IMG/VR virus record: IMGVR_UViG_2698536536_000001
Location: 1-18,079 of that record
Source: a virus
Taxonomy: Duplodnaviria > Heunggongvirae > Uroviricota > Caudoviricetes
DNA length: 18,079 nucleotides
Strand: one strand, 5' to 3'
Shown here one piece after another: positions 477-16,573 of the stretch (position 1 is its first letter; every line of letters starts with the position of its first letter). The translations under genes were made by a program, and so were the position numbers. The notes under the pieces are model-generated. The model worked only from the letters and a program-made list of their open reading frames with translations. It was not told the origin of the DNA and ran no database searches.

Positions 477-503
477 AAAAAATAAGCCCGTGTAAGGGAG
501 ATT
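477..503. repeat. Left copy of 27-bp P2 att core (aaaaaataagcccgtgtaagggagatt)
   Basis: Exact 27-bp direct repeat of 16547..16573. It sits about 80 bp from the 3' end of int, as expected for a P2-type prophage junction. Confidence 0.8.
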
Positions 504-582
504 TAGGGTGTCACCAGTAGGGGCTTTCAACGGTACAATGCGGGTTTGAGCGGCATAAATTACCACTGAAAGCCCTTAAACG

Positions 583-1596
583 TTACTCTACTGTGGACAC
601 TGTGTGGACACTCTCGGCCTCAGTACCACCTCTTAGCGGATTAAGAGAAATGGCGTCCTGAAGGTACTCTGGCGCAAAATGAGCGTAAACCATAGTTTGC
701 TCAATCCGCGTGTGACCTAGTATCCGTTGTAGCGTGATAATACTTCCTCCATTAATCATGAAATGAGTGGCAAAGCTGTGCCTTAGTGCATGTGTGGCTT
801 GCCCCATTGGCAAATCCGGTTTTATTGCTTTCATTGTTCTTCTGAAGCGAGGGTAATCAGCATCAGGGAATAAAAAACCTCGTTTGTTATCCGCGATCAT
901 TTTGGCAACAGCCTCTGAGATCGGGACGGTGCGTGGTTTGTTTGTTTTCGTTTTAACAAACGTGACGCGGTTATGGATGATATTTTCTGCTTTCAAACGA
1001 GCTGCTTCTCCCCAACGTGCTCCTGTACTCAGGCAAAGAATCGCAATCTTTTTGTTGTCGCCGTCAAGTGCTGCAAGCAGTAAGGCAATTTCTTCCTGTG
1101 TGAGATAGCCTGTTTCTGGTTTTTCCTCCTTAAGCCTCTTTGTCCCTCTGATAGGGTGCTCACCAAAGAATAACTCCGCTTCAATCAGGGCTGTAAACAT
1201 GCCGCTAATACATGTTAAATCACGATTGATACTCGAAGGTTTAATACCCTGACTTCTTCGGGTGGCGCAGTACTGGCTGATAAGGGATTTCGTGATTTGA
1301 AATGCGCATGGGTCATTCGTTATTTTTGTGAAGATTTCAATTTTTCCAAGATTAGATTTCCCATGCTCTTCGTGTTTACCCTTTAAATCCCACCAGATCT
1401 GTGTCAGTTCCGACAGACGTCGTTTGTCTGTTGGTTTTGATAGCCATTCTTTATTGTGGTGGTTGTACAACGTGTATTTTTCGAAAGCGACAGCTTCGCT
1501 TTTCTTATCAAACTTCCTACGGATGCGTTTTCCGTTACGTCCAGTAGGGCGGATGTCCACTTCATATCGACCATCATCGAGTTTTTTGATTGCCAT
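583..1596 (-). CDS. int: P2-type tyrosine integrase, 337 aa
   Basis: C-terminal catalytic region carries R (TGARWGE), HALRHSF (H-x-x-R), LGHT and YAHF, the tyrosine-recombinase residues. Length equals the 337 aa I recall for P2 Int. It is at the prophage end next to the att core. Good SD (ggaggg) upstream of the ATG. Confidence 0.9.
   Translation of the reverse strand: MAIKKLDDGRYEVDIRPTGRNGKRIRRKFDKKSEAVAFEKYTLYNHHNKEWLSKPTDKRRLSELTQIWWDLKGKHEEHGKSNLGKIEIFTKITNDPCAFQITKSLISQYCATRRSQGIKPSSINRDLTCISGMFTALIEAELFFGEHPIRGTKRLKEEKPETGYLTQEEIALLLAALDGDNKKIAILCLSTGARWGEAARLKAENIIHNRVTFVKTKTNKPRTVPISEAVAKMIADNKRGFLFPDADYPRFRRTMKAIKPDLPMGQATHALRHSFATHFMINGGSIITLQRILGHTRIEQTMVYAHFAPEYLQDAISLNPLRGGTEAESVHTVSTVE
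592..611. promoter_or_regulatory. Putative Int arm-type binding sites, two direct TGTGGACAC repeats 11 bp apart
   Basis: tgtggacac occurs at 592..600 and 603..611, overlapping the 3' end of int. Related TGTGG(A/T)C motifs occur beside the right att core (16483..16513). Assignment as Int arm sites is inference from position. Confidence 0.4.
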
Positions 1597-1711
1597 CAGA
1601 AAACCCTCCGAGTGGTACTTTTTTTTGCTACTACTAATCGCTTTTTTCGTGGTGGCTGAAATTTAGCCACCAATAGTAGGCACTTGTGATGAATATATTC
1701 GCGATAAATTG

Positions 1712-2011
1712 TTAACCAGTCTTTTGACCGGAGTGGGGCGACGTTGTTTCGTTTTGCCCAAAGTGTGCGAGAGCGGGCGCAATTTGCCCGGCTTCTGGAG
1801 CTACCTGATCAGTCATGAACCACAAAGTATATTTAGTAAATCTGGGATGTTGTAAGACCTTCATTATGGCTTCAACTCCAGCGTTTTTTGACCGGCTCTC
1901 ATAGCTCGAAAGTGAGCTGTAGGCTACACCAGTTAATTCACTGAATTCTTTACGGTTTAACCTTTCAGATTCACGGATTAGCTTCAACTTCTCCGAAACG
2001 TCTATTGACAT
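1712..2011 (-). CDS. C: P2-type immunity repressor C, 99 aa from internal Met (ORF track starts further upstream at 2083)
   Basis: C-terminal sequence ...QIAPALAHFGQNETTSPHSGQKTG and the ...TKYTLWFMT... segment match recalled P2 C repressor. 99 aa from MSIDVSEKL. Divergent from cox, upstream of int as in P2. Confidence 0.8.
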   Translation of the reverse strand: MSIDVSEKLKLIRESERLNRKEFSELTGVAYSSLSSYESRSKNAGVEAIMKVLQHPRFTKYTLWFMTDQVAPEAGQIAPALAHFGQNETTSPHSGQKTG

Positions 2012-2132
2012 AATTACTCCGATTGCGTAATTTCTTGCTGATAGTGTGAAATGTTGCGCTTCTGGAGTTATCCTTTTAGGCAATAATTAGCCATTAGGAG
2101 CCATTAGAAGCACTAAGGGAGAATCGTAGCAG
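2012..2132. promoter_or_regulatory. Early control region between C and cox (Pc/Pe-type face-to-face promoters with operator-like repeats)
   Basis: Divergent intergenic region. Direct repeats ccattag(g/a)a at 2091..2099 and 2101..2109, and TTAG recurring with about 10-bp periodicity across 2076..2107. SD aagggaga precedes the cox ATG. Exact promoter hexamers not assigned. Confidence 0.45.
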
Positions 2133-2408
2133 ATGAATAGACAGCTTGTAAGCGTGACTGATGCCGTGCCTTATCAGGAGTTTGCAAAACTCATTGGTAA
2201 AACTCCAAGAGCTGTAAGGGGCATGATTGAGAAAGGGAAATTACCAGTTATTGAGATTACTGACCCTCAGTCAGTATCGGGGCGTGCTGGTGAATATTGG
2301 GTATACCTTCCGGCATGGAATAACGGACTAAAACTGGCTTATGAAAGCCGTCCTAAAGAGATTCGTGACGGCTGGTTGATGTGGTTAGGTCTCGGTGAAC
2401 CACGTTAA
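2133..2408 (+). CDS. cox: Cox excisionase / early transcriptional regulator, 91 aa
   Basis: Strong similarity to recalled P2 Cox (…PYQEFAKLIGK…GKLPVI…TDPQS.SGRAGEYWVYLPAWNNGLKLAYESRPKEIRDGWLMWLGLGEPR). Size and position match. Confidence 0.85.
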   Translation: MNRQLVSVTDAVPYQEFAKLIGKTPRAVRGMIEKGKLPVIEITDPQSVSGRAGEYWVYLPAWNNGLKLAYESRPKEIRDGWLMWLGLGEPR

Positions 2409-2418
2409 GGAGAACCGT

Positions 2419-2589
2419 ATGAATGAGCCTCGTTGTATTGCTCAGTTATTGCGTAACGAAAGCCCCAGGGCGATTGACTTCACCATCACCCACGGTAAGG
2501 GGCGTAAGGGAATCATTATCCGTACCAAAAAACAGAGTCCGTTAAAAAAGGCTCTGAGCTTTCTGAAAAGCCGGAGGGTCTGGAAATGA
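2419..2589 (+). CDS. Small early-region protein, P2 orf78-like position
   Basis: ORF directly after cox. Start chosen at the ATG preceded by aaggag (the ORF track starts at 2395). Function unknown. Confidence 0.45.
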   Translation: MNEPRCIAQLLRNESPRAIDFTITHGKGRKGIIIRTKKQSPLKKALSFLKSRRVWK

Positions 2590-3086
2590 CAGTGATGACA
2601 CTTAATCTCGTTGAAAAACAGCCAGCAGCTATGCGCCGGATAATTGGTAAGCATCTGGCCGTCCCTCGCTGGCAGGAGACATGCGATTATTATAATCAGA
2701 TGATGGAACGCGAACGGCTAACGGTTTGCTTCCATGCGCAGTTAAAACAGCGTCACGCAACGATGCGTTTTGAAGAAATGAACGACGTCGAACGTGAACG
2801 GCTGGTTTGTGCAATTGATGAACTGCGTGGGGCATTCTCAAAACGCCGTCAGGTCGGTGCAAGTGAGTATGCATATATTAGCTTTTTAACTGTCAGTCAG
2901 CGCCGTACTTTATTTATGCATGCCGGATTGACTGAAAAAGAATTCAACCAGCCATACTGGCGAATTAATGAAGAATCATGTTACTGGCGTGATGCCTTAT
3001 TCCGTGCATTACGTGAATTATTCAGCCTGTTTGAGTATGCACCGACAATTCTGACGTCGGTAAAACCAGAGCAATATCTGCATTAA
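2586..3086 (+). CDS. B: Replication gene B protein (helicase loader-like), 166 aa
   Basis: Position after cox/orf78 and length identical to the 166 aa I recall for P2 B. Start overlaps the preceding stop (ATGA), suggesting translational coupling. Confidence 0.75.
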   Translation: MTVMTLNLVEKQPAAMRRIIGKHLAVPRWQETCDYYNQMMERERLTVCFHAQLKQRHATMRFEEMNDVERERLVCAIDELRGAFSKRRQVGASEYAYISFLTVSQRRTLFMHAGLTEKEFNQPYWRINEESCYWRDALFRALRELFSLFEYAPTILTSVKPEQYLH

Positions 3087-3149
3087 GTAATTAACCAGAG
3101 TTTTTAACGCACTTAATTGTGCGGGGCTTCTTTTTGCCTGGAGAAAGTC

Positions 3150-3374
3150 ATGCATACAGTTTCTGAAAATCAGTGCGGTAAATACGCATTACTGCTGCAA
3201 CAGGCCAGAACCGAAGCACAGGCCGACGCAGCGACACGCTTTTCTTCTCATCTTGACGCCATGATTCGCCACATCACAAAGGCGGAGTTATCCCGCGTAG
3301 AGATAGTCGAGCTGCTCAGTCAGGAGTCGGAAAAATTTCACAATATCGGATTGTCTCGCGGGGAGGTGCTTTGA
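3150..3374 (+). CDS. Hypothetical early-region protein (P2 orf80 position)
   Basis: ORF with SD-like ggaga before the internal ATG at 3150; the ORF track starts at 3117. Synteny only. Confidence 0.45.
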
Positions 3375-3676
3375 TGTCCTGTTCTCGTTCAGTTGTATTA
3401 CTGAATAACGCCTTAAAAATCACCGTTATGAAAAATGGCGATCTATCTCTTATTCAACTTGGTCTTGATAAAGAAAAACGCGAAATAACTGAGTCTGTTA
3501 TCGCGATTTATCAGAACGAATTAAATCTCCTGTCTGATGTGGTCAATTTACTTGTTAAACGCGCTGTATTTCACAAGCAAATCTCCTCCGTGGATGAACT
3601 GACGAAATTAACGACAGAAATTGCCAGCTATTGCGCTGATGAATTTAAAAAACTGAACGACAAAAGGAACTGGTAA
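3371..3676 (+). CDS. Hypothetical early-region protein (P2 orf81 position)
   Basis: ORF whose start overlaps the previous stop. AT-richer than neighbours. Synteny only. Confidence 0.45.
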
Positions 3677-3900
3677 TGCCGGACAACGTAGATTTTATTC
3701 AGGAACAACAGGCTGAATTACTGGAGCGTCAGATTAACGCGGCAAGGGTAAAACATTGCGGAGCTTCTGCGCTGGTTTGCGAAGAGTGTGACGTGCCAAT
3801 ACCTGCTGCCCGTCGTGCGGCTTATCCGTCAGCCACGCGTTGTGTTTCCTGCCAGTCAGTCTTTGAAGCAAAAAACAAACATTACCGGAGAACGGCATGA
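3676..3900 (+). CDS. TraR/DksA-family C4 zinc-finger protein (P2 orf82 position)
   Basis: Translation contains C-x2-C-x17-C-x2-C (CEEC…17 residues…CVSC), the DksA/TraR zinc-finger spacing. 74 aa. Confidence 0.6.
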   Translation: MPDNVDFIQEQQAELLERQINAARVKHCGASALVCEECDVPIPAARRAAYPSATRCVSCQSVFEAKNKHYRRTA

Positions 3901-4172
3901 GTATTCGTATTGAAATTGGCGAACGTTATGTCGTTACCAGTGACAGCTTTCAGTTTATTCTCCACGAGAAAAAGAGAGCGGAAAGCGGTAAAAACGCCGG
4001 TCAGGAATGGCTGGCGGTGGTTGGTTATTATCCGAAATTAAGCCAGCTCGTTTCCGGCCTGATGCATCACGATATTCTGACCGGAAGCGCAAAGTCTTTT
4101 GCTGATTTAAACGCGCAGGTTGAGCAACTCAGCAGGCGTTGTTCAGAGGCTTTTGGCTCATATGGCCGTTAA
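3897..4172 (+). CDS. Hypothetical early-region protein (P2 orf83 position)
   Basis: ORF overlapping both neighbours (ATGA-type junctions). Synteny only. Confidence 0.45.
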   Translation: MSIRIEIGERYVVTSDSFQFILHEKKRAESGKNAGQEWLAVVGYYPKLSQLVSGLMHHDILTGSAKSFADLNAQVEQLSRRCSEAFGSYGR

Positions 4173-5753
4173 AGCCTCCGGGCGTTTTGTCCCTCCTTCA
4201 GCATTTGCTGCAGGCACCGGTAAGGCGTTTACCGGTGCTTATGCATGGAACGCGCCACGCGAGGCCGTCGGGCGCGAAAGACCCCTTACACGTGACGAGA
4301 TGCGTCAGGTGCAAGGTGTTTTATCCACGATTAACCGCCTGCCTTACTTTTTGCGCTCGCTGTTTACTTCACGCTATGACTACATCCGGCGCAATAAAAG
4401 CCCGGTATTGAGCGTTACGCCGCCGCAGAGGGTGATGTGGGGATGTTTATCACGCTGACCGCGCCGTCAAAGTATCACCCGACTCGTCAGGTCAGAAAAG
4501 GCGAAAGTAAAACCGTTCAGCTTAATCACGGCTGGAACGATGAGGCATTTAATCCAAAGGATGCGCAGCGTTATCTCTGTCGTATCTGGAGCCTGATGCG
4601 CACGGCATTCAAGGATAATGATTTACAGGCCTACGGTTTGCGTGTCGTTGAGCCACACCACGACGGAACGCCGCACTGGCATATGATGCTTTTTTGTAAT
4701 CCACGCCAGCGTAACCAGATTATTGAAATCATGCGTCGCTATGCGCTCAAAGAGGATGGCGACGAAAGAGGAGCCGCGCGAAACCGTTTTCAGGCAAAAC
4801 ACCTTAACCGGGGCGGTGCTGCGGGGTATATCGCGAAATACATCTCAAAAAACATCGATGGCTATGCACTGGATGGTCAGCTCGATAACGATACCGGCAG
4901 ACCGCTGAAAGACACTGCTGCGGCTGTTACCGCATGGGCGTCAACGTGGCGCATCCCACAATTTAAAACGGTTGGTCTGCCGACAATGGGGGCTTACCGT
5001 GAACTACGCAAATTGCCTCGCGGCGTCAGCATTGCTGATGAGTTTGACGAGCGCGTCGAGGCTGCACGCGCCGCCGCAGACAGTGGTGATTTTGCGTTGT
5101 ATATCAGCGCACAGGGTGGGGCAAATGTCCCGCGCGATTGTCAGACTGTCAGGGTCGCCCGTAGTCCGTCGGATGAAGTTAACGAGTACGAGGAAGAAGT
5201 CGAGAGAGTGGTCGGCATTTACGCGCCGCATCTCGGCGCGCGTCATATTCATATCACCAGAACGACGGACTGGCGCATTGTGCCGAAAGTTCCGGTCGTG
5301 GAGCCTTTGGCTTTAAAAAGCGGCATCGCCGCGCCTCGGAGTCCTGTCAATAACTGTGGAAAGCTCACCGGTGGTGATACTTCGTTACCGGCTCCCACAC
5401 CTTCTGAGCACGCCGCAGCAGTGCTTAATCTGGTAGATGACGGTGTTATCGAATGGAATGACCAGGAGGTCGTGAGGGCGCTCAGAGGTGCATTAAAACA
5501 CGGTCTGAGAAGACCAAACCGTCAGCAAAGAAACGGAAGCCCGTTAAAACCGCATGAAATAGCGCCATCGGCCAGACTGACCCGGTCGGAACGAATGCAA
5601 ATTACCCGTATCCGCGTTGACCTTGCTCAGAACGGTATCAGGCCGCAGCGATGGGAGCTTGAGGCGCTGGCGCGTGGTGCAATTGTGAACTATGGCGCAA
5701 AAGAATTTCATTACCATGTTCAGAAGGCGTGGGAAGCATTTTCGAGGTGGTAA
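4162..5753 (+). pseudogene. A: Rolling-circle replication initiator gene A, apparently frameshifted
   Basis: N-terminal frame MAVKASGRF… from 4162 ends at 4458. The C-terminal frame opens at 4398 and runs to 5753. The two frames are reconciled by a 1-nt change in the A4 run at 4396..4399. The C-terminal part carries an HUH motif (HHDGTPHWHMMLF) and a two-tyrosine motif (YIAKYISK). The combined length of about 530 aa is shorter than the roughly 760 aa I recall for P2 A. Confidence 0.7.
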
Positions 5754-5863
5754 TCTAAATATGAAAAATCTGCACACCGAAACACTCTTGTAGGTTGATA
5801 ATTTGCAAACTAGGTGGATTTACTCTTTGATGTGTAAGAAGTTATACTACAAAAAATTGATTT

Positions 5864-6784
5864 ATGGGCTTGGCGATGTATAACGATCCTTATAGTGACC
5901 CAAAAGCGTGGGAATCATATTTCAAAAATATTGTTTGGCTACATTATAAGCCTGCTAACTGTTGTGACTTGCCAGATGAGCATGGAGGCGACTTTGGGCT
6001 GGAGTGTTACACTCTGAGTGGTCATGTTTTTCAGTGTTACTTGCCTGAGCAGTCGAGTGATATTGATAAGCTTTATAAAGCGCAACAAAAAAAGATTTAT
6101 ACTGATATAAAAAAGTTTTCTCAGGATAACATTAAAGAATTAGAGGAGCTTTTTGGCACATTAAAAATTAGCCGCTGGATATTAGCTACACCATATAATA
6201 AATCGGCGAAATTAAGTCAATATTGCACAAAAAAATCATTAAAAGTAAGAGAGTTAGGGATTTCTTACGTTGCTGATGATTTTCAAATAGTAGTGCAAAC
6301 AGATCGAAATTATATAGAAGAAGCGTTCTTTCTTCGCAAAAATAACTATCAATTAAGCTTTAATATAAATGATGCGACGGCTGAGAATGCTGCTAACTTT
6401 ATTAGTGAAAATACATCTTTTTTAGATAAGCTAAATTTAAAATTACCTAAGATAAATGATGATGTATCTAGGCAGGGTTTATATAGAGAGTTTTTAATAC
6501 AAAAATATCTTGATTATCAAAACTTGCTGGATGCTTTGAAGAGAGACTGGGTTGATATCTATGAAATTATCTATAACTGTGTTCAACATAGAGAACGTAA
6601 TTTGGTAGGTCTCTTTCTTCTTACTTCATCAGATGCGAAACCATCAGATATAATGAAAGATGAAATCGCTTTGTTAAAGAAATGTATTGAAGAGGAAGTT
6701 AGTACGCTTAAACAGGCTGACTTGGATAAGATAACATGGGGAGTTATTTCTGATTGGCTTATAAGATGCCCTTTAGATTTTTAG
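5864..6784 (+). CDS. Cargo gene 1: unknown 306-aa protein, candidate effector of a defence operon
   Basis: Long ORF in a sharply AT-rich block directly after A, in the P2 tin/old hotspot position. N-terminal Cys/His-rich patch (NCCDLPDEHGGDFGLECYTLSGHVFQCY). No motif assignable by eye. Confidence 0.6.
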   Translation: MGLAMYNDPYSDPKAWESYFKNIVWLHYKPANCCDLPDEHGGDFGLECYTLSGHVFQCYLPEQSSDIDKLYKAQQKKIYTDIKKFSQDNIKELEELFGTLKISRWILATPYNKSAKLSQYCTKKSLKVRELGISYVADDFQIVVQTDRNYIEEAFFLRKNNYQLSFNINDATAENAANFISENTSFLDKLNLKLPKINDDVSRQGLYREFLIQKYLDYQNLLDALKRDWVDIYEIIYNCVQHRERNLVGLFLLTSSDAKPSDIMKDEIALLKKCIEEEVSTLKQADLDKITWGVISDWLIRCPLDF

Positions 6785-6785
6785 A

Positions 6786-7262
6786 ATGGAAAAGCAAATG
6801 CATATAACGATAGATGAAATAATAGGAAGGCCGTTTACGTTTAATAAACGACCTGAACATTTGCCATGTGATATGAGACCATTGTGGCGTTGCAGTTTGT
6901 TGCTGATAATATTCCTTGTCACAGGGAGAGCTGGTTGCTGTTCTTTAAAAAAACTTCATTTAATTAATTGGATGTTAAAGTCAGAGAATAATGAAGCAAT
7001 GTTTGAATTCTGGCTTTTAAACAAAGAAGGTTTAAAGCCTGAAGTAAGATTGGATCCAACTTTAGATAGAGCAATACAGCTATTATTAGCAGAGGATTTT
7101 ATTTTGAGAAATGAACGAGCGTTCAAAATAAATGAAAAGGGGCTTAAGGTCGCTGAGAAATTGCTTTCTCTTGATGTGTTCAAAGAAGAAAGGTTGGTGC
7201 TAAATAAACATAAGGCTGGACTGTCCGAAACTAACATTAATAAAATATTTCAGGTGGGTTAA
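6786..7262 (+). CDS. Cargo gene 2: unknown 158-aa protein
   Basis: Starts 2 bp after the gene 1 stop and ends 1 bp before gene 3. Same AT-rich composition. Contains one hydrophobic stretch (LWRCSLLLIIFLVTG). Confidence 0.55.
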   Translation: MEKQMHITIDEIIGRPFTFNKRPEHLPCDMRPLWRCSLLLIIFLVTGRAGCCSLKKLHLINWMLKSENNEAMFEFWLLNKEGLKPEVRLDPTLDRAIQLLLAEDFILRNERAFKINEKGLKVAEKLLSLDVFKEERLVLNKHKAGLSETNINKIFQVG

Positions 7263-7263
7263 T

Positions 7264-9285
7264 ATGTCGTTGGAAATTATTTCATTGGAGTTAGTAGCAA
7301 ATACTTCGGATGGGCGTTATGGTGTTAGTATACCTTTTTCAAATGGCTTGTTTTTATTAAGAGTTGAGAATTCTCATGGTAAATCAACTTGCATGAATGG
7401 GATTGCATATGCACTTGGGATGGAAAAGGCATTAGGTGTCGGTTCTGGAAAAATCCCATTCCCTCCATCTTTGACTAGAGCACTAACGACAAAAGATAAT
7501 GTTGAAGTTAGTGTAATATCATCTTATGTTTTGCTAAAAATAAAGAATCATAAGGGAATAGAAGCATCTTTGAAAAGGAATATTATCGGTCACGATAATA
7601 ATAATGTTATTTATATAGATGAGAAGAATAATGTAAAAAGTAAGAGTGGTACTTATTTTTTACATAGAGAGGGCGATACTGAAAGGGAACGTGGTTTCTA
7701 TAAGTGGTTAGCTGATTTTATAGGTTGGAGTTTGCCAAATGTTCCAAACCATAATGGGAAGGACACTATTCTTTATCCATCCGTACTTTTCCCTGCATGG
7801 TATGTTGAGCAAAAAAAAGGATGGTCGTCAATTATGGCGACTGTACCAACACAATTTGGAATTAAAGAGCCAAAGAAAAGAGCTCTAGAATTTTTAATGT
7901 CTCTTGATGTTAATGATAATATTTTATTGCGTAGTTCGTTAAGAAATGAACTTGATATTATTTATCATGATTGGAAGTTAATTAAACACAATGCAGAAGT
8001 TATTGCTTCTAAATTGTCGTCAGTTGTCACAGGGATTCCTGAACAACCAGTGGCAAAATTTGATCATTATAAGATAGATTTGATTATTAAAAATGGTAGT
8101 GTCGTTAGATCTATTGTTGATGTTCGTAATGAACTGGAAAAAGAGTTGCAAGAAATTAAGTTTGACACTCTTGGTGAGCAAGAAGAACAAACTTTACAAT
8201 TATCAGTGGTTAAGTTATTAGGTCAAAAAAATGATGAAATTAACTCTCTGGAATTAAAGATTAAAGAGATTTGTGAGCATAGAAGTTATATTCAATATCA
8301 AATTCAGGCGACCAAAAACAGATTGTATAATCTGTTGGAAGATAAAAGGAAGTATGAAGATTTAAAGAAAATATCATCTTCGGATGCGTATAAGTCAACA
8401 GATTTAATGTCAAATATTTGTCCGACTTGTGGTGCAAGTTATAATGATAATTTGCTAAGTTTTTCATCGCAAGAAAATCTGATGACATATGAAGATAGTT
8501 TGAACTTTATTAAAGAGCAAGTAAAAGCATTTGAGTTTGTTCTGTCGGATAGTGAAAAGCAATTAAAGCTTAAAGATGTTGAGAGGAGTGATTTAGAGGG
8601 GGAAATAGCCAAGATTAGAGTTGATATTAATGCATTAAGGGAGTCAAAATATCCCTCAATGGTTGTTCAGGAGGAGTTTCTGAGACGTAAAATAAACATT
8701 GAGAATAAAATTAATGCCATTAACGATGGCATTAAAAGTATATTGGACATTAGACTGGAGTTGGATTCATTACACCGTAGATATAAAAAGCTTATCGCGA
8801 AAAGAAAAGGGTTGCCAGATAATTTCTTGTCGCGTAATGATGCCGATAAGTTAAAATTTCTTAATAAAGAAGTCGTTGCACGATTAGAAAAATATAATTT
8901 TACAAGTTTTGATTCTAAACTTGTGTCAATATCAGAAGATAATTACTTACCTACTAGGGAAGGATATGATATAGGTTTTGACACATCAGCTAGTGATGGA
9001 ATAAGAATCATTTGGGGTTATTTAATAAGTTTATTTGTTGTTGGTTCTAAATTTCAAACAAATCACCCTGGATTGATTGTGTTTGATGAGCCTCGTCAAC
9101 AAGAAGCAAATAAAGTAAGTTTTGCCGAGTTACTTAAAGATGCTGCAGAAACAACAAAAGGACAAGGGCAGATCATTTTTGCTACATCAGAAGATGAAAA
9201 TGTCTTAAAAGAGGCATTAGAAGGGTATGACTATACAATGATATCCTTTGATAAGAACAATGGGAAATTGTTGAGGAAATTATAA
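7264..9285 (+). CDS. Cargo gene 3: SMC/Rad50-like ABC ATPase with coiled-coil arms, 673 aa
   Basis: N-terminal Walker A-like P-loop VENSHGKST (about 7366..7389). Long K/E/L-rich heptad-like middle region. CPTC motif at 8419..8430 near the middle of the coiled coil. C-terminal Walker B/D-loop GLIVFDEP (about 9071..9094). Confidence 0.75.
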   Translation: MSLEIISLELVANTSDGRYGVSIPFSNGLFLLRVENSHGKSTCMNGIAYALGMEKALGVGSGKIPFPPSLTRALTTKDNVEVSVISSYVLLKIKNHKGIEASLKRNIIGHDNNNVIYIDEKNNVKSKSGTYFLHREGDTERERGFYKWLADFIGWSLPNVPNHNGKDTILYPSVLFPAWYVEQKKGWSSIMATVPTQFGIKEPKKRALEFLMSLDVNDNILLRSSLRNELDIIYHDWKLIKHNAEVIASKLSSVVTGIPEQPVAKFDHYKIDLIIKNGSVVRSIVDVRNELEKELQEIKFDTLGEQEEQTLQLSVVKLLGQKNDEINSLELKIKEICEHRSYIQYQIQATKNRLYNLLEDKRKYEDLKKISSSDAYKSTDLMSNICPTCGASYNDNLLSFSSQENLMTYEDSLNFIKEQVKAFEFVLSDSEKQLKLKDVERSDLEGEIAKIRVDINALRESKYPSMVVQEEFLRRKINIENKINAINDGIKSILDIRLELDSLHRRYKKLIAKRKGLPDNFLSRNDADKLKFLNKEVVARLEKYNFTSFDSKLVSISEDNYLPTREGYDIGFDTSASDGIRIIWGYLISLFVVGSKFQTNHPGLIVFDEPRQQEANKVSFAELLKDAAETTKGQGQIIFATSEDENVLKEALEGYDYTMISFDKNNGKLLRKL

Positions 9286-9408: not shown

Positions 9409-9427
9409 GGCGAGGCGGGGAAAGCAC
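9409..9427. other. Putative cos site (19-nt cohesive end ggcgaggcggggaaagcac)
   Basis: Matches the P2 cohesive-end sequence as I recall it. Lies in the GC-rich intergenic region between the hotspot cargo and Q, where cos sits in P2. Confidence 0.55.
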
Positions 9428-9565: not shown

Positions 9566-9589
9566 ATAAAAAAGCCGCCCGCAGGCGGC
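9566..9589 (-). terminator. Rho-independent terminator downstream of Q
   Basis: Minus-strand hairpin gccgcc-tgcg-ggcggc (stems at 9574..9579 and 9584..9589) followed by a U-run (a-run 9566..9573 on the plus strand), directly 3' of the Q stop. Confidence 0.5.
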
Positions 9590-9594
9590 GATGT

Positions 9595-10629
9595 TCAGCC
9601 GTTGTCAGTGTCCAGTGAGTAGTTTTTAAAGCGGATGACCTCCTGACCGAGCCAGCCGTTTATCTCGCGGATCCTGTCCTGTAGCGGGATAAGCTCATTG
9701 CGGACAAAGACCTTTGCCACTTTCTCAATATCACCCAGCGACCCGACGTTCTCCGGCTTGCCGCCCATCAACTGAAAGGGGATGCGGTGCGCGTCCAGCA
9801 GGTCAGCGGCGCTGGCTTTTTTGATATTAAAAAAATCGTCCTTCGTTGCCACTTCACTGAGCGGGATAATTTTGATGCCGTCGGCTTTCCCCTGTGGGGC
9901 ATAGAGAAACAGATTTTTAAAGTTGTTGCGGCCTTTCGACTTCACCATGTTTTCGCGGAGCATTTCGATATCGTTGCGATCCTGCACGGCATCAGTGACG
10001 TACATGATGTATCCGGCATGAGCGCCGTTTTCGTAATACTTGCGGCGGAACAGTGTGGCTGATTCATTCAGCCAGGCAGAATTAAGGGCGCTGAGATATT
10101 CCGGCAGGCCGTACAGCTCCTGATTGATATCCGGCTCCAGCAGGTGAAACACGGAGCCGGGCGTGAAGGCTGTCGGCTCGTTGAAGGACGGCACCCACCA
10201 GTAAACATCCTCCTCCACGCCACGGCGGGTATATTTTGCCGGTGAGGTTTCCAGTCTAATGACCTTACCGGTGGTGCTGTAACGCTTTTCCAGAAACGCA
10301 TTACCGAACACCAGAAAATCCAGCACAAAGCGGCTGAAATCCTGTTGCGAAAGCCACGGATGCGGGATAAATGTCGAGGCCAGAATATTGCGTTTAACGT
10401 AAATCGGTGAGCTGTGATGCACGGCAGCACGCAGGCTTTTCGCCAGACCGGTAAAGCTGACCGGCGGCTCATACCATCTGCCGTTACTGATGCACTCGAC
10501 GTAATCCAGAATGTCACGGCGGTCGAGTACCGGCACCGGCTCACCAAAGGTGAAAGCCTCCATTTTCGGGGCGCTGGCGGTCATTTTTTTTGCCTCAGGT
10601 TGCGGTGTTTTCCCTTTTTTCTTGCTCAT
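9595..10629 (-). CDS. Q: Portal (capsid) protein Q, 344 aa
   Basis: 344 aa, the length I recall for P2 Q. N-terminus MSKKKGKTPQP… Adjacent to cos and in P2 orientation. Confidence 0.85.
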   Translation of the reverse strand: MSKKKGKTPQPEAKKMTASAPKMEAFTFGEPVPVLDRRDILDYVECISNGRWYEPPVSFTGLAKSLRAAVHHSSPIYVKRNILASTFIPHPWLSQQDFSRFVLDFLVFGNAFLEKRYSTTGKVIRLETSPAKYTRRGVEEDVYWWVPSFNEPTAFTPGSVFHLLEPDINQELYGLPEYLSALNSAWLNESATLFRRKYYENGAHAGYIMYVTDAVQDRNDIEMLRENMVKSKGRNNFKNLFLYAPQGKADGIKIIPLSEVATKDDFFNIKKASAADLLDAHRIPFQLMGGKPENVGSLGDIEKVAKVFVRNELIPLQDRIREINGWLGQEVIRFKNYSLDTDNG

Positions 10630-10940
10630 CAGTAAAACTCCAGAATGGTGGATGTCAGCGGAGTGCTGATACCGGCGGTGAGTGGCTCATTTAACAGGGC
10701 GTGCATGGTTGCCCAGGCGAGGTCGGCGTGGCTGGCTTCCTCGCTGCGGCTGGCCTCATAGGTGGCGCTGCGTCCGCTGCTGGTCATGGTCTTGCGGATA
10801 GCCATAAACGAGCTGGTGATGTCGGTGGCGCTGACGTCATATTCCAGACAGCCACGGCGGATAACGTCTTTTGCCTTGGCCGACATCGTGCTCAACAGTA
10901 CGCAGGCGTCTTTCTGTACCGAATACCGCGTCGTGACCGG
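10629..10940 (-). pseudogene. P: 3' remnant of terminase large-subunit gene P, truncated by deletion
   Basis: Open frame whose stop overlaps the Q start (ATGA), as for P-Q in P2, but only about 100 codons remain before it collides with gene I on the opposite strand. Upstream boundary is approximate. Homology to P not verified. Confidence 0.4.
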
Positions 10941-10948
10941 AGGCTCGG

Positions 10949-11479
10949 ATGAGTGATTCGCGACTGCTGCCGACCGGCTCATCACCGCTTGAGGTCGCCG
11001 CCGCAAAAGCCTGTGCGGAAATTGAAAAAACGCCGGTCAGTATTCGTGAGCTGTGGAACCCGGACACCTGTCCGGCAAATCTGCTGCCGTGGCTGGCGTG
11101 GGCGTTTTCGGTCGACAGGTGGGATGAAAAGTGGCCGGAAGCGACAAAACGCGCCGTTATCCGCGATGCGTATTTCATCCACTGTCATAAGGGCACTATC
11201 GGTGCAATCCGGCGTGTGGTGGAGCCGCTCGGCTATCTCATCAACGTGACGGAGTGGTGGGAAAACAGTGACCCGCCAGGCACCTTCCGGCTTGATATTG
11301 GTGTTCTGGAAAGTGGCATCACAGAGGCAATGTATCAGGAAATGGAACGGCTGATTGCTGATGCCAAACCTGCAAGCCGTCACCTTATTGGCCTGAACAT
11401 TACCCGGGACATTCCCGGCTACCTGTTCGCCGGTGGTGTGGCTTACGACGGCGATGTAATTACGGTTTACCCCGGATAA
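10949..11479 (+). CDS. I: Baseplate assembly protein I, 176 aa
   Basis: 176 aa with sequence matching recalled P2 gpI (MSDSRLLPTGSSPLEVAAAKA…). SD ggagg upstream. Immediately followed by H. Confidence 0.8.
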   Translation: MSDSRLLPTGSSPLEVAAAKACAEIEKTPVSIRELWNPDTCPANLLPWLAWAFSVDRWDEKWPEATKRAVIRDAYFIHCHKGTIGAIRRVVEPLGYLINVTEWWENSDPPGTFRLDIGVLESGITEAMYQEMERLIADAKPASRHLIGLNITRDIPGYLFAGGVAYDGDVITVYPG

Positions 11480-11489
11480 GTGAGGAATA

Positions 11490-13700
11490 ATGAGCACAAA
11501 ATTCAGAACCGTTATCACCACTGCCGGTGCAGCAAAGCTGGCAGCGGCAACCGCGCCGGGAGGGCGGAAGGTCAACATTACCACGATGGCCGTCGGGGAT
11601 GGCGGTGGTAAATTGCCTGTCCCGGATGCCGGACAGACCGGGCTTATCCATGAAGTCTGGCGACATGCGCTGAACAAAATCAGCCAGGACAAACGAAACA
11701 GTAATTATATTATCGCAGAGCTGGTTATTCCGCCGGAGGTGGGCGGTTTCTGGATGCGTGAGCTTGGCCTGTACGATGATGCGGGAACATTAATTGCCGT
11801 GGCGAACATGGCCGAAAGTTATAAGCCAGCTCTTGCCGAAGGCTCAGGGCGTTCGCAGACCTGTCGCATGGTCATCATCGTCAGCAGTGTGGCCTCAGTG
11901 GCGCTGACCATTGACACCACAACGGTGATGGCGACGCAGGATTACGTTGATGACAAAATTGCAGAGCATGAACAGTCACGACGTCACCCGGACGCCTCGC
12001 TGACCGCAAAAGGTTTTACTCAGTTAAGCAATGCGACCAACAGCACGTCTGAAACACTGGCCGCAACGCCGAAAGCGGTAAAGGCCGCGTATGATCTTGC
12101 TAACGGGAAATACACTGCGCAGGATGCCACCACAGCGCGAAAAGGCCTTGTCCAGCTCAGTAGCGCCACCAACAGCACGTCTGAAACGCTCGCCGCAACA
12201 CCAAAAGCGGTAAAGGCAGCATATGACCTGGCTAACGGGAAATATACCGCACAGGACGCCACCACAGCGCGAAAAGGCCTTGTCCAGCTCAGTAGCGCCA
12301 CCAACAGCGATTCTGAAACGCTTGCGGCAACGCCAAAGGCGGTAAAAGCAGCATATGACCTTGCTAACGGGAAATACACTGCACAGGATGCCACCACGGC
12401 GCGAAAAGGTCTTGTCCAGCTCAGTAGCGACACCAACAGTGATTCTGAAACGCTGGCCGCAACACCAAAAGCGGTGAAGTCTGCCTATGACAATGCTGAA
12501 AAACGTCTTCAGAAAGATCAGAACGGTGCGGATATTCCGGGAAAGGATACCTTCACGAAAAATATCGGTGCCTGTCGTGCTTATAGCGGTGCTTTGAGCA
12601 CTGAAGCCGGAAACTGGACAACCGCTCAGTTTATTGACTGGCTAGAGTCTCAGGGAGCCTTTAATCATCCCTACTGGATGTGCAAGTGTTCCTGGTCATA
12701 CGGTAATAACAAAATTATTACCGATACTGACTGTGGGACGATTCATCTTGCAGGTTGCGTGATTGAGGTTATGGGCGTTAAAGCAGCAATGACCATTCGT
12801 GTGACCACTCCGAGTACATCAAGCGGTGGTGGTACCACCAGTGCGCAATTCACGTATATCAATCACGGAGCTGATTATGCGCCGGGCTGGCGACGCGACT
12901 ACAATACGAAAAATAAGCAACCGGCTTTTGCATTAGGGAAAACAGGAAATACGGTTGCAAATAATAAAGCGGTAGGATGGAACTGGGACAGTGGTGCTTA
13001 TTGTGCAAAGGATGGCGGAGCATCCAAAATGGTGCTGCATTTTTACACGGGTGAGGGAAGTTGTCCGGCAATGCAGTTTCTTGTGGATTATAAAAACAGG
13101 GGGATTTTTTACAGGTCGGCACGTGATTGGTATGGATTTGAGGCTGACTGGTCAGAGTTTTATACCACATCACGAAAGCCAACACCTGCGGATATTCTTG
13201 CTCTGGCATTATCAGGTGGAAGCATGTCAGGCAGCATAAAATTTATCAATGATGCCTTCCTGATTTGGGAAAGAAACACTGATTGGGCGAAAATTGGATT
13301 TAAAAATGATTCAGATGCTGATTCTGACTCATACATGTGGTTTGAAACTGGTGATAATGGCAATGAATATTTTAAATGGCGCATCAGGTCTGGCAGCACA
13401 ACAAAAGATCTGATGACGCTTAAGTCTGATGCACTACGGGTTACCGGGCAGGTGATACCATCAAATTTCAGCAATTTTGACTCCCGCTATGTCCGGGATA
13501 TCCGGCTTGGTGGTGCCGCCACATACAAACCTGCGAACAATGGCATGACATGGACACATCAGGCACCGTCCGGGTGTGTATATACCGGCATTATTGTTCA
13601 GGATACCGGCTCAAACTCTGCCGATAACATTGGTGGCGTATATTACAGACCGGTTCAGAAATACATTAACGGGACGTGGTACAACGTGGCGCAGGTATAA
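11490..13700 (+). CDS. H: Tail fibre protein H, 736 aa, with internal tandem repeats
   Basis: Conserved P2-type N-terminus (MSTKFRTVITTAGAAKLAAA…). Central 44-aa tandem repeats. C-terminal part is lower in GC and presumably the receptor-binding region. SD gagga upstream. Followed by G. Confidence 0.85.
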   Translation: MSTKFRTVITTAGAAKLAAATAPGGRKVNITTMAVGDGGGKLPVPDAGQTGLIHEVWRHALNKISQDKRNSNYIIAELVIPPEVGGFWMRELGLYDDAGTLIAVANMAESYKPALAEGSGRSQTCRMVIIVSSVASVALTIDTTTVMATQDYVDDKIAEHEQSRRHPDASLTAKGFTQLSNATNSTSETLAATPKAVKAAYDLANGKYTAQDATTARKGLVQLSSATNSTSETLAATPKAVKAAYDLANGKYTAQDATTARKGLVQLSSATNSDSETLAATPKAVKAAYDLANGKYTAQDATTARKGLVQLSSDTNSDSETLAATPKAVKSAYDNAEKRLQKDQNGADIPGKDTFTKNIGACRAYSGALSTEAGNWTTAQFIDWLESQGAFNHPYWMCKCSWSYGNNKIITDTDCGTIHLAGCVIEVMGVKAAMTIRVTTPSTSSGGGTTSAQFTYINHGADYAPGWRRDYNTKNKQPAFALGKTGNTVANNKAVGWNWDSGAYCAKDGGASKMVLHFYTGEGSCPAMQFLVDYKNRGIFYRSARDWYGFEADWSEFYTTSRKPTPADILALALSGGSMSGSIKFINDAFLIWERNTDWAKIGFKNDSDADSDSYMWFETGDNGNEYFKWRIRSGSTTKDLMTLKSDALRVTGQVIPSNFSNFDSRYVRDIRLGGAATYKPANNGMTWTHQAPSGCVYTGIIVQDTGSNSADNIGGVYYRPVQKYINGTWYNVAQV
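12010..12495. repeat. Tandem coding repeats inside H, 132-bp unit, about 3.7 copies
   Basis: Units begin at about 12036, 12168, 12300 and 12432. They are roughly 90% identical, differing mainly at third codon positions, and encode ATNSTSETLAATPKAVKAAYDLANGKYTAQDATTARKGLVQLSS. Confidence 0.85.
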
Positions 13701-13703
13701 TTT

Positions 13704-14231
13704 ATGCAGCATTTGATAAATATAACGGCAGGTAATCCAAAAACGGTTGAACAATATCAATTGACAAAGGACTTTGATGTTGTCTGGTTTTTTTCAGAAG
13801 ATGGTAAGAACTGGTACGAAGAACAAAAGTATTTTGCTGATGACACGATAAAAATAGCGTACGACAAAGATAATATTATCCGCTATGTGGAAAAGGATGT
13901 GACAGCTATCAGACCGGATGGATTAAGTGTGGTTGAAGTGGTGGATATTACTGCTAATCGACGGGCGGACATTTCAGGGAACTGGATGTTTAAGGACGGC
14001 AAAGTGATTAAACGCATTTATACGGCAGAGGAATTGCGGCAGCAGGCAGAAAACCGGAAAGCCAGACTTCTTGCAGATGCTGAATCCGTGATTTTGCCGC
14101 TGGAGCGCGCGGTCAGACTGAACATGGCAACAGATGAGGAGCGTAGCCGACTGGAAGCATGGGAACGCTACAGCGTTCTGGTCAGTCGTGTGGAGCCTGC
14201 AAATCCTGAATGGCCGGAAATGCCGCAATAA
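13704..14231 (+). CDS. G: Tail fibre assembly protein G, 175 aa
   Basis: 175 aa, directly downstream of H as in P2. Start is 3 bp after the H stop. Confidence 0.8.
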
Positions 14232-14412
14232 GTTGTATGAGCTTACATATCTATTGCGTAGAGTAAAGCATAATCTGACAGTCCGCTCTGTGCCAGAAGC
14301 GGACGTAGCGGCAGCATACATAACCTTATGATTTCTTAAAATTTTCCGCTTGGTTTCTGATTGACTAATGAAAATTAATTGAAATTATAAAGCATTCGCA
14401 GTAACTTGTGCG

Positions 14413-14658
14413 GTGCCGATAATTTCATTCTACCCAATATCATTTATGATTGTAGATAAGAGTAGTGAAAAATATAACAACGGATATAGTGTTGCAATAC
14501 CACTTGGAGCCGTGAAAATGGAACTGGCCGATGATGTACTAAAAATAAACCTTTCATCATGGAATGATATTAAAACAGGATTTCCTTACACAGGGATTAA
14601 TGAGTATGAGTTACTCATATTAGATGAGAATCTTTCATTTATAACTTATAAAAAATAA
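14413..14658 (+). CDS. Hypothetical small protein in the Z/fun hotspot position (start uncertain)
   Basis: AT-rich ORF between G and FI. The ORF-track start is a GTG; an alternative ATG lies at 14446. No clear SD. No recognisable motif. Confidence 0.3.
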   Translation: MPIISFYPISFMIVDKSSEKYNNGYSVAIPLGAVKMELADDVLKINLSSWNDIKTGFPYTGINEYELLILDENLSFITYKK

Positions 14659-14713
14659 CAATTAACAATACTTCACTTATGTGTGAGTGGTTTTAAAGAG
14701 TAAATAATTCATA

Positions 14714-15016
14714 ATGGAAAAAAGTATGACAATTGAAACCATAAAAATACTAGCGGCAATTAGTAGCATCATTGGTTCTATGATTCTTGCCTATCGAGTT
14801 ACAGGGATTCTTGCAGCACTTTCTCTTGCAATAGATTGCCATGAAGAAAACATTAAACAATTAATGCCAACCAATAAGGGGGATGTTTATTATCTCGCAA
14901 ATGCAACTACGCACGTTAAAAATGCGCAAAAGAAACCGCTTCTAATCACGGGGTTTATCTTTCTAATTGCATCTGGTTTTTTGCAGTTTACAGCGTTGAT
15001 AATGGCAAATATTTAA
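14714..15016 (+). CDS. Small membrane protein, about 100 aa with two predicted transmembrane helices
   Basis: Hydrophobic segments IKILAAISSIIGSMILAY…GILAALSLAI and LLITGFIFLIASGFLQFTALIMANI. AT-rich. Followed by a terminator at 15186..15213. Confidence 0.5.
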   Translation: MEKSMTIETIKILAAISSIIGSMILAYRVTGILAALSLAIDCHEENIKQLMPTNKGDVYYLANATTHVKNAQKKPLLITGFIFLIASGFLQFTALIMANI

Positions 15017-15185
15017 CAATGGAATGATACCACCGGTGGTGCGGCTGAAACGATTTGTACGTCATTTAAGCCGCATCGAAATTTAAAGTAACGTCCGCAA
15101 TTCGCTCCAAGCAGACTGTCAGATTTGATAGCGTTTTGGCTATGTAAATTGTCAGTCGGAAAATGAGTGAATACAAATCAGGACA

Positions 15186-15213
15186 GGCGGGCTGATTGCC
15201 CGCCTTTTCTTTA
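15186..15213 (+). terminator. Rho-independent terminator after the Z/fun-position cargo
   Basis: Hairpin ggcgggc-tgatt-gcccgcc followed by ttttcttt. Confidence 0.55.
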
Positions 15214-15308
15214 TCTGTTGTTTCATCCCCTGACCAGCCAGGTCAAATAGCGTCTCATGCTCTGCACAACAGAAAATAGTTGCACCCATTAACCACGGAG
15301 TTAAACGG

Positions 15309-16145
15309 ATGAGTGACTATCATCACGGCGTGCAGGTGCTGGAGATTAACGACGGCACCCGCGTCATTTCCACCGTATCCACTGCCATTGTCGGCATGGT
15401 CTGCACGGCCAGCGATGCGGATGCGGAAACCTTTCCCCTCAATAAACCTGTGCTGATTACCAATGTGCAGAGCGCAATTGCAAAGGCCGGTAAAAAAGGC
15501 ACGCTGGCGGCGTCGCTGCAGGCCATCGCCGACCAGTCAAAACCGGTCACCGTTGTTGTGCGCGTGGAAGACGGCACCGGCGACGACGAGGAAACGAAAC
15601 TTGCGCAGACCGTTTCCAATATCATCGGCACCACCGACGAAAACGGTCAGTACACCGGCGTAACGGCAAAGTGGTTACACACCAAAGACCCGAAGCCGCA
15701 AAAGCAGAAGGTAAAACTGAAACGCAAAAAGAAAGAAAAACACCTGCGCGCACTGGAGCACCCGAAAGCGAAACCGGTCACGCAGAAGAAAGCGCCAAAA
15801 GTACCGGAAGCGCGCGAAGGTGAATACATGGCCGGTGAAGCTGACAACGTTTTTGCCCTGACTACGGTATATGCCACGAAAGCACAGGCCATGCGCGCCG
15901 CTCAGGCGAAGTGGGATAAACTGCAACGGGGCGTTGCGGAGTTCTCCATCAGCCTTGCCACTGGTCGTGCTGATATTTACACGGAAACACCGGTCAGAGT
16001 GTCAGGCTTTAAGCGCGTCATAGACGAGCAGGACTGGACCATCACTAAGGTGACACATTTTCTGAATAATAGCGGCTTCACGACGTCCTTGGAGCTTGAG
16101 GTCAGGCTTTCTGATGTGGAGTACGAAACAGAAGATGATGAGTAA
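15309..16145 (+). pseudogene. In-frame fusion remnant: tail sheath FI N-terminus joined to tail protein D C-terminus (yegZ-like)
   Basis: First ~118 residues ([14 protein letters not shown]…TDENGQYTG) match the recalled P2 FI sheath N-terminus. The C-terminal ~100 residues lie immediately upstream of ogr, where gene D ends in P2. The two are joined by a Lys-rich linker. FII, E, T, U and most of FI and D are missing. Confidence 0.65.
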
Positions 16146-16226
16146 TGTTTTTATTTTATCTGTTTGTTTTATAAGGATAAATTAACTAAAATGGCACCGT
16201 CAACAAAACCGGAAGAGGTGCTCGCG

Positions 16227-16445
16227 ATGTTTCATTGTCCTTTATGCCAGCATGCCGCACATGCGCGTACAAGTCGCTATATCACTGACACGACAAAAGA
16301 GCGTTATCACCAGTGTCAGAACGTGAATTGTAGCGCCACGTTCATCACTTATGAGTCGGTACAGCGATACATCGTGAAGCCGGGAGAAGTCCACGCCGTA
16401 AGGCCGCACCCGTTGCCATCAGGGCAGCAAATTATGTGGATGTAA
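16227..16445 (+). CDS. ogr: Late-gene transcription activator Ogr, zinc-finger protein, 72 aa
   Basis: Sequence MFHCPLCQHAAHARTSRYITDTTKERYHQCQNVNCSATFITYESVQRYIV… matches recalled P2 Ogr, with C-x2-C…C-x4-C zinc-finger cysteines. Start taken at the internal ATG with SD ggaagagg, not the upstream ATG at 16164. Confidence 0.9.
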   Translation: MFHCPLCQHAAHARTSRYITDTTKERYHQCQNVNCSATFITYESVQRYIVKPGEVHAVRPHPLPSGQQIMWM

Positions 16446-16457
16446 TTACAAACAGAA

Positions 16458-16482
16458 AGCCCCTCAGTCGAGGGGCTTTTTT
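16458..16482 (+). terminator. Rho-independent terminator of ogr
   Basis: Hairpin agcccct-cagtcg-aggggct followed by tttttt. Confidence 0.6.
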
Positions 16483-16513
16483 GTCGATGTGGTCAATGTG
16501 TGGACGTGACCAG
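16483..16513. promoter_or_regulatory. Arm-type repeat region next to the right att core (tgtggtcaa / tgtggacgt)
   Basis: Sequence gtcgatgtggtcaatgtgtggacgtgaccag contains two TGTGG(A/T)C motifs. A close copy of this segment also occurs at 429..458 in the left flank. Confidence 0.4.
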
Positions 16514-16546
16514 AAATAAATCCTTTTATTTCAATTTGTTGTACGT

Positions 16547-16573
16547 AAAAAATAAGCCCGTGTAAGGGAGATT
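16547..16573. repeat. Right copy of 27-bp P2 att core
   Basis: Exact direct repeat of 477..503. It overlaps the terminator end of cyaR. Confidence 0.8.

Follow-up and report, generated by a model that had tools for sequence, protein, structure and literature searches.

A defective P2-like prophage carrying a predicted Lamassu operon at the cyaR site of Escherichia coli

The locus described here raises the question of what a P2-like prophage has become when about half of the phage genome is missing and its integration, immunity and accessory genes are intact: a remnant caught early in decay, an element domesticated for its cargo, or an island which a helper phage could still mobilise. The stretch of DNA analysed (18,079 nucleotides, IMG/VR virus record IMGVR_UViG_2698536536_000001, positions 1–18,079; hereafter the window) is a segment of the Escherichia coli chromosome, with 12,771 overlapping bases identical to contig CXYB01000001.1 (1.2 Mb) of NCBI assembly GCA_001268725.1. 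Positions 476–16573 of the window (16.1 kb) are a P2-like prophage lying between yegR on the left and cyaR/yegQ on the right. This element is very probably a recently decayed P2-like prophage which was made by deletions and now forms a fixed accessory island carrying a Lamassu system.

Gene content, deletion junctions and intact relatives

The element is a P2-like (Peduovirus) prophage. It occupies the site preferred by P2, the 3' end of cyaR, in the interval from yegR to yegQ. Both of its ends are formed by a perfect 28-bp direct repeat (Table 1), and the flanks on CXYB01000001.1 consist of core genes only, namely gatZABCD-gatR-yegS-yegR on the left and cyaR-yegQ-yegP-baeRS-mdtDCB on the right. 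No tRNA genes were found in the window. The host small RNA (sRNA) gene cyaR terminates within the P2 att core, and it is the attR copy of the prophage that provides CyaR with its 3' end. The same layout is seen in K-12, where cyaR overlaps the P2 remnant PR-X.

The element was mapped by blastn against P2 (NC_001895) and by tblastn of all P2 proteins, with coordinates taken from the P2 annotation. Seven blocks were found to be collinear with P2 at 89–98% nucleotide identity (Table 1), and the 16.1 kb obtained correspond to 48% of the P2 genome, in agreement with the initial annotation, which had put the element at about 16 kb or roughly half of P2. The P2-type gene order, int, a C/cox switch, the early operon, cos and ogr are present and identify the element as a P2-like prophage; the full functional gene set for replication, capsid, packaging, lysis and tail is not present, which makes it a defective member of the group. 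In the window no tblastn match was obtained for P2 O, N, M, L, X, Y, K, lysA/B, R, S, orf30, V, W, FII, E, T or U, and P, J, FI, D and A are left truncated. The lost set also includes lysC, the N-terminus of P, most of J and the N-terminus of D. Nor does a tailocin-type cluster remain, the sheath being truncated and the tube, tape measure, baseplate (V, W, J) and lysis genes being absent by tblastn.

The loss of O through J, which had been claimed for this element, holds for the O-to-W region, and the P stub is indeed joined to the J/I side, but a stub of 26 codons of J remains. The absence of FII, E, T and U with fusion of FI to D was borne out, the FI'-'D fusion being in frame and 278 aa long. 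Gene A is shifted in frame, as had been stated, but the cause is an internal deletion of 677 bp (P2 28279–28955) rather than a simple frameshift. The int, cox and C genes, both att cores, cos, ogr and both cargo loci had been described as intact, which agrees with the full-length proteins and with inspection of the att repeat and cos. The earlier description of the element is thereby confirmed almost point for point.

All three joins between the retained P2 segments are clean, with 2–8 bp of microhomology. The 8-bp repeat at the FI-D join, TACACCGG, occurs just three times in P2. Judged by these short repeats, the joins appear to be three separate illegitimate deletions of the kind typical of microhomology. 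Hidden homology between the P and J breakpoints was considered and rejected, as their local alignment score is 18, a value which 25% of windows drawn at random from P2 attain. Variants of the junctions, sought with patterns of two anchors around N{20,50}, had no matches in IMG/VR viral contigs or in GTDB genome contigs. For the search of complete genomes with the A-deletion junction it should be noted that the 677-bp gap lies within joining distance, and intact A genes score as full matches.

Two intact prophages place the deletions at the same positions. The prophage of JNE25-003 (NZ_AP045053), located at the same yegR site, matches window 1–4406 plus 4402–10878 at 98.4–98.5%; it has a complete A, the same Lamassu cargo and the same C/cox type, and continues into P, O, N and further genes. 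The prophage of VG12A2 (NZ_CP128592) matches window 10877–15658 in a single ungapped block of 4,782 bp at 98.6%, and carries the same I-H-G (including the 736-aa H), Z/fun cargo and pF-FI, with the region from FI to D complete. The retained proteins all have their full length, and their sequences match those of these intact relatives exactly or almost so. As the intact relatives carry the missing DNA, the sequence was lost and not moved; together with the clean junctions and the core-only flanks, this upholds the earlier proposal of deletion rather than rearrangement.

The progenitor appears to have been an ordinary mosaic P2-like phage of ~32–33 kb (32.9 kb on the P2 scale), with a JNE25-003-like left half and a VG12A2-like right half. 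It would have been shrunk by three deletions, losing the 16–17 kb by which the element falls short of P2 and of the JNE25-003 and VG12A2 prophages (677 bp of A, P-J and FI-D). These deletions eliminate replication (A), packaging (P, M), head formation (O, N, L) and lysis (Y, K, lysABC), as well as the functions of the baseplate (V, W, J) and of the tail (FI, FII, E, T, U, D), and with them the ability to kill the cell or to form particles.

It could be argued that the joins are false and were created by a draft assembler which collapsed two P2-like prophages. The source is indeed a draft assembly, and E. coli genomes often have two or more P2-like regions (median of 2 places per genome). However, the joins link non-homologous positions sharing only 2–8 bp, which repeat collapse cannot yield, and they sit within a 1.2-Mb contig. 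Moreover, the same FI'-'D fusion, differing by 2 aa, is encoded on an independent Logan contig built from reads, and analogous junctions are present in finished genomes. An assembly artefact is considered extremely improbable.

Accessory cargo and retained phage genes

The segment between A and cos (5707–9380) has a G+C content of 31–36%, compared with 44–58% in the flanking P2-derived segments. It contains lmuA, lmuC and lmuB, which are adjacent on one strand with a spacing of 1–2 bp, as in a three-gene operon. The LmuB proteins of short-type Lamassu systems are defined by a P-loop, a Walker B motif of the form hhhhD[QSTE] and a long coiled coil in the centre; a CxxC hook may or may not be present (PMC12663957). 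The LmuB of the element matches the LmuB profile and possesses a GKST P-loop (residues 39–42), a Walker B motif (LIVFDE, at 604) and a CPTC zinc hook (at 386), which places it with the short type on the profile match and these three motifs. On this basis the old/tin hotspot is predicted to hold a short-type Lamassu system, lmuA-lmuC-lmuB.

In short Lamassu systems DNA ends and phage replication are sensed by LmuB, an SMC/Rad50-like protein, which frees and activates the LmuA effector (PMC12663957). The system of the element, with LmuB as sensor, LmuC, and LmuA as effector, would be expected to give abortive or DNA-targeting defence. LmuA is short (302 aa, at 5876–6784) and has no recognisable effector domain, searches of Pfam, NCBIfam and PDB sequences being without a match; it may belong to the Lamassu clade reported as having lost the known effector domain (PMC12663957). 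The PDB sequence search with LmuB was likewise without a match. Exact copies of LmuA were found on ~910 contigs and of LmuB on ~850 contigs, and both are therefore common E. coli alleles. Relative to the intact JNE25-003 prophage, LmuA and LmuC are identical and LmuB differs by one residue.

The second hotspot, Z/fun (14304–15090), has a G+C content of ~34% and contains two small open reading frames (ORFs) (Table 1), neither of which could be assigned to a family in Pfam, PHROGs, NCBIfam or PADLOC. The 70-aa protein was found on ~85 contigs and the 96-aa protein on ~189 contigs, and both genes are likewise neighbours at this locus in the VG12A2 prophage, which is intact. The 96-aa protein was also found in Klebsiella, Serratia and Pectobacterium. 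This conserved gene pair could represent a small cassette, so far uncharacterised, for defence or exclusion.

Regarding the phage genes proper, the divergence of C and Cox from their P2 counterparts (64.6 and 83.5% identity, respectively) indicates a different immunity type, heteroimmune to P2. The B protein is identical to that of an intact relative. The ori nick region, near 5338 within 'A, is identical to that of P2. The late promoters pP/pO and pV fall within the P-J deletion according to the P2 annotation coordinates, which leaves Q, the P stub and I-H-G without a known promoter. The I protein is 100% identical to that of P2 and G is 74% identical, whereas H is chimeric. Gene H (11490–13700) contains approximately four diverged tandem copies of a 132-bp (44-aa) unit at ~12008–12497, which is present once in P2. 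The 736-aa H stands alone in its 90% cluster, but it has the same length and 98.6% sequence identity in the intact VG12A2 prophage, and is therefore a natural tail-fibre variant and not a sign of damage. The FI'-'D protein is a chimera of the sheath N-terminus and the gpD C-terminus located behind a conserved pF late promoter, and would be made only if Ogr is expressed.

Table 1. Segments collinear with P2, deletion junctions and features of the element (positions in the window; P2 positions refer to NC_001895)
Feature	Window position	Strand	P2 position	Remarks
Collinear block	476-1841		24355-25720	att core, int, 3' part of C
Collinear block	2155-4406		26027-28278	cox through first 245 nt of A
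Collinear block	4402-5707		28956-30261	remainder of A
Collinear block	9409-10878		1-1470	cos, Q, last 85 codons of P
Collinear block	10877-12215		12121-13459	last 26 codons of J, I, 5' part of H
Collinear block	15090-15658		17429-18001	pF and FI codons 1-120
Collinear block	15651-16573		23460-24382	D codons 220-387, ogr, att core
Junction in A	4402-4406		28278 to 28956	microhomology CCGGT on both sides; 677 bp lost
Junction P-J	10877-10878		1470 to 12121	2-bp overlap; ~10 kb lost
Junction FI-D	15651-15658		18001 to 23460	8-bp repeat TACACCGG; 5.46 kb lost
attL core	476..503			left copy of the 28-bp repeat (27-bp P2 att core plus one base)
attL Cox-binding region and Int P' arm sites	520..617			0 mismatches to P2 (P2 annotation coordinates)
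int	583..1596	-		337 aa, 100% identical to P2 Int
C immunity repressor	1712..2011	-		99 aa, full length; 64.6% to P2 C; identical to C of the intact JNE25-003 prophage
cox	2133..2408	+		91 aa, full length; 83.5% to P2 Cox; identical to JNE25-003 Cox
Early genes orf78, B, orf80, orf81, orf82, orf83	2419..4172	+		all full length; B and orf78-83 96-99% to P2
A' N-terminal fragment	4162..4458	+		82 native aa plus 16 out-of-frame aa; contains the deletion junction 4402-4406
'A C-terminal part	4404..5753	+		aa 309-755; other frame than A'
lmuA	5864..6784	+		302-306 aa; low G+C; promoter-like site 5819-5848; PADLOC LmuA 1.1e-29
lmuC	6786..7262	+		154-158 aa; PADLOC LmuC 2.5e-23
lmuB	7264..9285	+		673 aa, SMC/Rad50-like; PADLOC LmuB 1.1e-98 over full length
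cos	9409..9427			19-nt cohesive end GGCGAGGCGGGGAAAGCAC, intact, identical to P2; flanks near-identical
Q portal gene	9595..10629	-		344 aa, intact, 98.8% to P2; pP promoter gone
P terminase stub	10629..10886	-		residues 506-590 only
P-J junction and J stub	10877..10953	+		last 26 codons of J (residues 277-302)
I, H, G	10949..14231	+		176, 736 and 175 aa; intact; collinear with VG12A2 prophage, 98.6%; pV deleted
Z/fun ORF, 70 aa	14446-14658	+		soluble
Z/fun ORF, 96 aa	14726-15016	+		two hydrophobic segments
FI(1-120)-D(220-387) fusion ORF	15309..16145	+		in frame, 278 aa; only pF region kept upstream
ogr	16227..16445	+		72 aa, 100% to P2 Ogr; promoter 1 mismatch to P2, terminator none
attR	16484..16573			Int P arm (no mismatch to P2), IHF site (1 mismatch), right 28-bp core 16546-16573
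cyaR (host sRNA gene)	16550..16635	-		Rfam RF00112, 100.7 bits; 3' end from attR core

Recent decay, domestication or mobilisation

The remaining parts most likely serve as a fixed accessory island, in which the Lamassu operon would be accompanied by the two-gene Z/fun cassette and by a C repressor giving immunity against phages of the same immunity type. The distribution of the deletion alleles is very narrow. The exact FI'-'D fusion was found on one NCBI contig (GCA_001268725.1), and a variant differing by 2 aa on a single Logan contig of 3 kb. The truncated A ORF was found only on the GCA_001268725.1 contig, and no complete E. coli genome covers at least 80% of the window. Retention of the same defective element across diverged host lineages was thus not seen (one NCBI and one Logan contig). 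In addition, no point-mutation defect was detected in any retained gene, and the state of Q, I, H and G is no worse than that of the Lamassu genes. With cargo no better kept than these useless genes, the decay must be recent, and differential decay cannot be claimed.

Several observations weigh against so simple a history. Lamassu activity, C immunity and excision are all inferred from the sequence. In a simulation of three random deletions of the sizes found here, which was designed after the retention pattern had been seen, both cargo loci were spared in 2.5% and all retained modules in 1% of trials; given these values and the lack of point-mutation decay, the pattern is somewhat unlikely by chance and some selection on the retained parts is possible. 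The same retention pattern also recurs in the remnants of LR-28, ZH177 and EC3. These remnants at the same site kept the hotspots and int/C and lost morphogenesis genes, and they hold other cargo: a DUF7380 protein and DarTG in LR-28, a three-gene cargo and PIN+SIR2 in ZH177, and a SIR2 protein in EC3/AB104. The LR-28 remnant (7876–19483, ~11.6 kb) retains int, C, DUF7380 at old/tin and DarT-DarG at Z/fun, nearly all phage functions having been lost.

Such observations are what domestication would predict, in which selection keeps both cargo loci, and perhaps immunity, and the dangerous lytic genes are selectively removed. All three deletions hit lytic-growth functions and spare the hotspots, int/C/cox, cos and ogr/att, to the extent that random placement reproduces in only 1–2.5% of trials, and independent remnants at the same locus agree. 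However, the simulation is post hoc, the deletion alleles are limited to one assembly and one short contig, and Q, I, H, G and the P stub are equally intact, so that there is neither differential decay nor time depth; one or two sequences are also too few for a test of purifying selection (dN/dS). Domestication for the cargo, as put forward in the initial annotation, is not borne out by this distribution or by the equal state of the useless genes, and is regarded as unlikely, though by no means negligible. Recent decay, perhaps aided by selection on the cargo, accounts best for what has been retained, and domestication is not demonstrated. The interpretation given in the initial annotation is supported in part.

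Elements of this class are known. A survey of thousands of P2/P4 elements reported that defective P2-like ones hold defence genes nearly identical to those of intact phages and that, among core genes, pseudogenisation most often strikes the replication gene; it left domestication open (PMC13586616, Nucleic Acids Res 2026). The A-Q hotspot of P2 was defined by Rousset et al. (2022) (PMC9122126). The element shares with those of both studies the A-Q variable defence locus, near-identical defence genes and the frequent loss of the replication gene; the element itself and its junctions were not found described in these two papers, which treat the class statistically. P2 itself has the same gene order, att core, cos and ori, with identical Int and Ogr. 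PR-X of K-12 (the yegZ-ogrK remnant beside cyaR) is a P2-like deletion remnant at the same site which keeps the 3' part of D, ogr and attR. Whereas PR-X is ~640 bp and has no int, immunity genes, cos or cargo, the element of the window keeps 16 kb; the PR-X junction joins the attL core to D at P2 23742, and the D fragment of the window starts at 23460.

The intact integration module raises the further possibility of movement. Int and Cox are present, as are both att sites together with their arm, Cox-binding and IHF sites, and one IHF mismatch is the sole deviation from P2 in these sites. Everything known as needed for P2 excision is present, which makes excision plausible. The element could be cut out if Cox were expressed, and would then be lost rather than propagated. 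With C intact, Cox should stay repressed, and the P2 type of repressor is not SOS-inducible (PMC2669165).

A helper-dependent island would go further, using its own Int and Cox for excision and its cos for packaging by a co-resident or superinfecting P2-like phage, in the manner of a defence-carrying satellite. The int and cox genes and cos are intact, as are both att sites and every arm site, and a dimer (2 x 16.07 kb = 32.1 kb) would have 96% of the length of the P2 genome. However, the A protein of P2 acts preferentially in cis. With A destroyed, an excised circle would therefore not replicate, and complementation by a helper would be poor. Dimers could arise only through replication or recombination. 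No dimers or rise in copy number are expected here with A destroyed, and the 16-kb monomer fills only 48% of a P2 head. Added to this, Cox is expected to be repressed, and occurrence in essentially one strain is not what would be expected of an element that transfers. With an intact cos but a dead and cis-acting A, helper-mediated packaging is a speculative proposal.

A precedent for mobilisation is Sp13 of O157 Sakai, a P2-like prophage also without most morphogenetic genes, which was excised, amplified and packaged (PMC2669165). Sp13 amplifies on induction and carries a P4 epsilon-like gene, whereas the element of the window has a broken A and no epsilon homologue; Sp13-like amplification is therefore not expected. 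Phage P4 is likewise small, with a P2-type cos and its own integrase, and depends on P2 structural proteins, but it possesses a primase/replicon, the capsid-size factor Sid, Psu and the epsilon derepressor, none of which were found among the window ORFs. No sid/psu, primase, epsilon or delta homologue was detected among the window ORFs or family matches, where only the phage's own ogr was found. Of the features of a P4-like satellite, cos is thus present and a replicon of its own is not (broken A only, no primase family match). A helper-dependent mobilisable island is accordingly judged a very unlikely account of the element, a draft artefact is less likely still, and recent decay into a fixed island is retained as the preferred reading.

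Coinciding deletion endpoints among P2 remnants

The comparison of the element with other remnants suggests that deletion endpoints in P2 DNA may not be randomly distributed. The remnants came from searching complete genomes with the window junctions, and their endpoints were mapped in P2 coordinates. EC3/AB104 joins 28279 to 28985, 1509 to 12159 and 20009 to 23743; LR-28 joins 26198 to 29940, 18008 to 22296 and 22673 to 23485; and ZH177 joins 25805 to 29316, 1507 to 10668 and 18017 to 22925. In 3908, which occupies a different att site, 754 is joined to 7339 and 18406 to 23485. NCTC9100 joins host DNA to 1500, 1852 to 13102, 18017 to 19640 and 20005 to 23487, and K-12 PR-X has the single join given above.

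In this small and partly selected sample (the window and six remnants), 13 pairs of endpoints from different strains lie no more than 10 bp apart, compared with 0.38 expected. When endpoints constrained by the way the loci were discovered are removed, this conservative subset retains 4 pairs compared with 0.16 expected (P ~1e-4). The shared endpoints fall in P (~1500–1509), FI (18001–18017), T (20005–20009), D (23485–23487 and 23742/23743) and A (28278/28279). The window junctions share only their A-side endpoint (1 bp) and their FI-side endpoint (7 bp) with other strains. As shared endpoints have different partners, the junctions were not simply inherited, and the DNA beside them is 94–98% identical between strains, no more than among P2 relatives generally.

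Shared ancestry with EC3/AB104 was considered, since its P-J and A junctions lie within ~40 bp of those of the window. It was rejected because neither junction can be derived from the other by deletion, and the flanks are no more similar than those of P2 relatives in general.

Hairpin propensity, Chi sites and the motifs ACACCGG/CCGGTGT gave no consistent signal at the breakpoints, and the Chi sequence, GCTGGTGG, is absent from the whole P2 genome in either orientation. A 5-mer scan of 28 breakpoint sites returned only GCTCC/GGAGC, at 7 sites (Bonferroni-corrected P ~0.01), which is a weak lead. In spread samples drawn from 5,426 genomes, complete copies made up 1584 of 2126 for the D region and 1589 of 1737 for the Q-P region, leaving too few partial copies to map endpoint hot spots.

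The clustering of endpoints points to fragile sites in P2 DNA, or to old junctions being used again in recombination between a remnant and an incoming relative. Such re-use would be a form of homology-facilitated illegitimate recombination which stalls at the edge of heterology. A more general idea, that P2 prophage decay in E. coli follows a reproducible path with preferred breakpoints towards a fixed defence island, in which hotspots and int/C are kept and replication and morphogenesis genes lost, is offered tentatively and seems to us doubtful on the present sample.

Defective P2 elements which keep defence genes have already been published, and a single further element adds little to a known class. 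It nevertheless provides a fully mapped example of a temperate phage turning into what is very probably an immobile carrier of anti-phage genes, and its practical value is as a test case for excision, for Lamassu protection and for selection on cargo retention. The only part that could lead somewhere new is the clustering of endpoints, which, if true across thousands of genomes, would amount to mechanistic hot spots of prophage decay.

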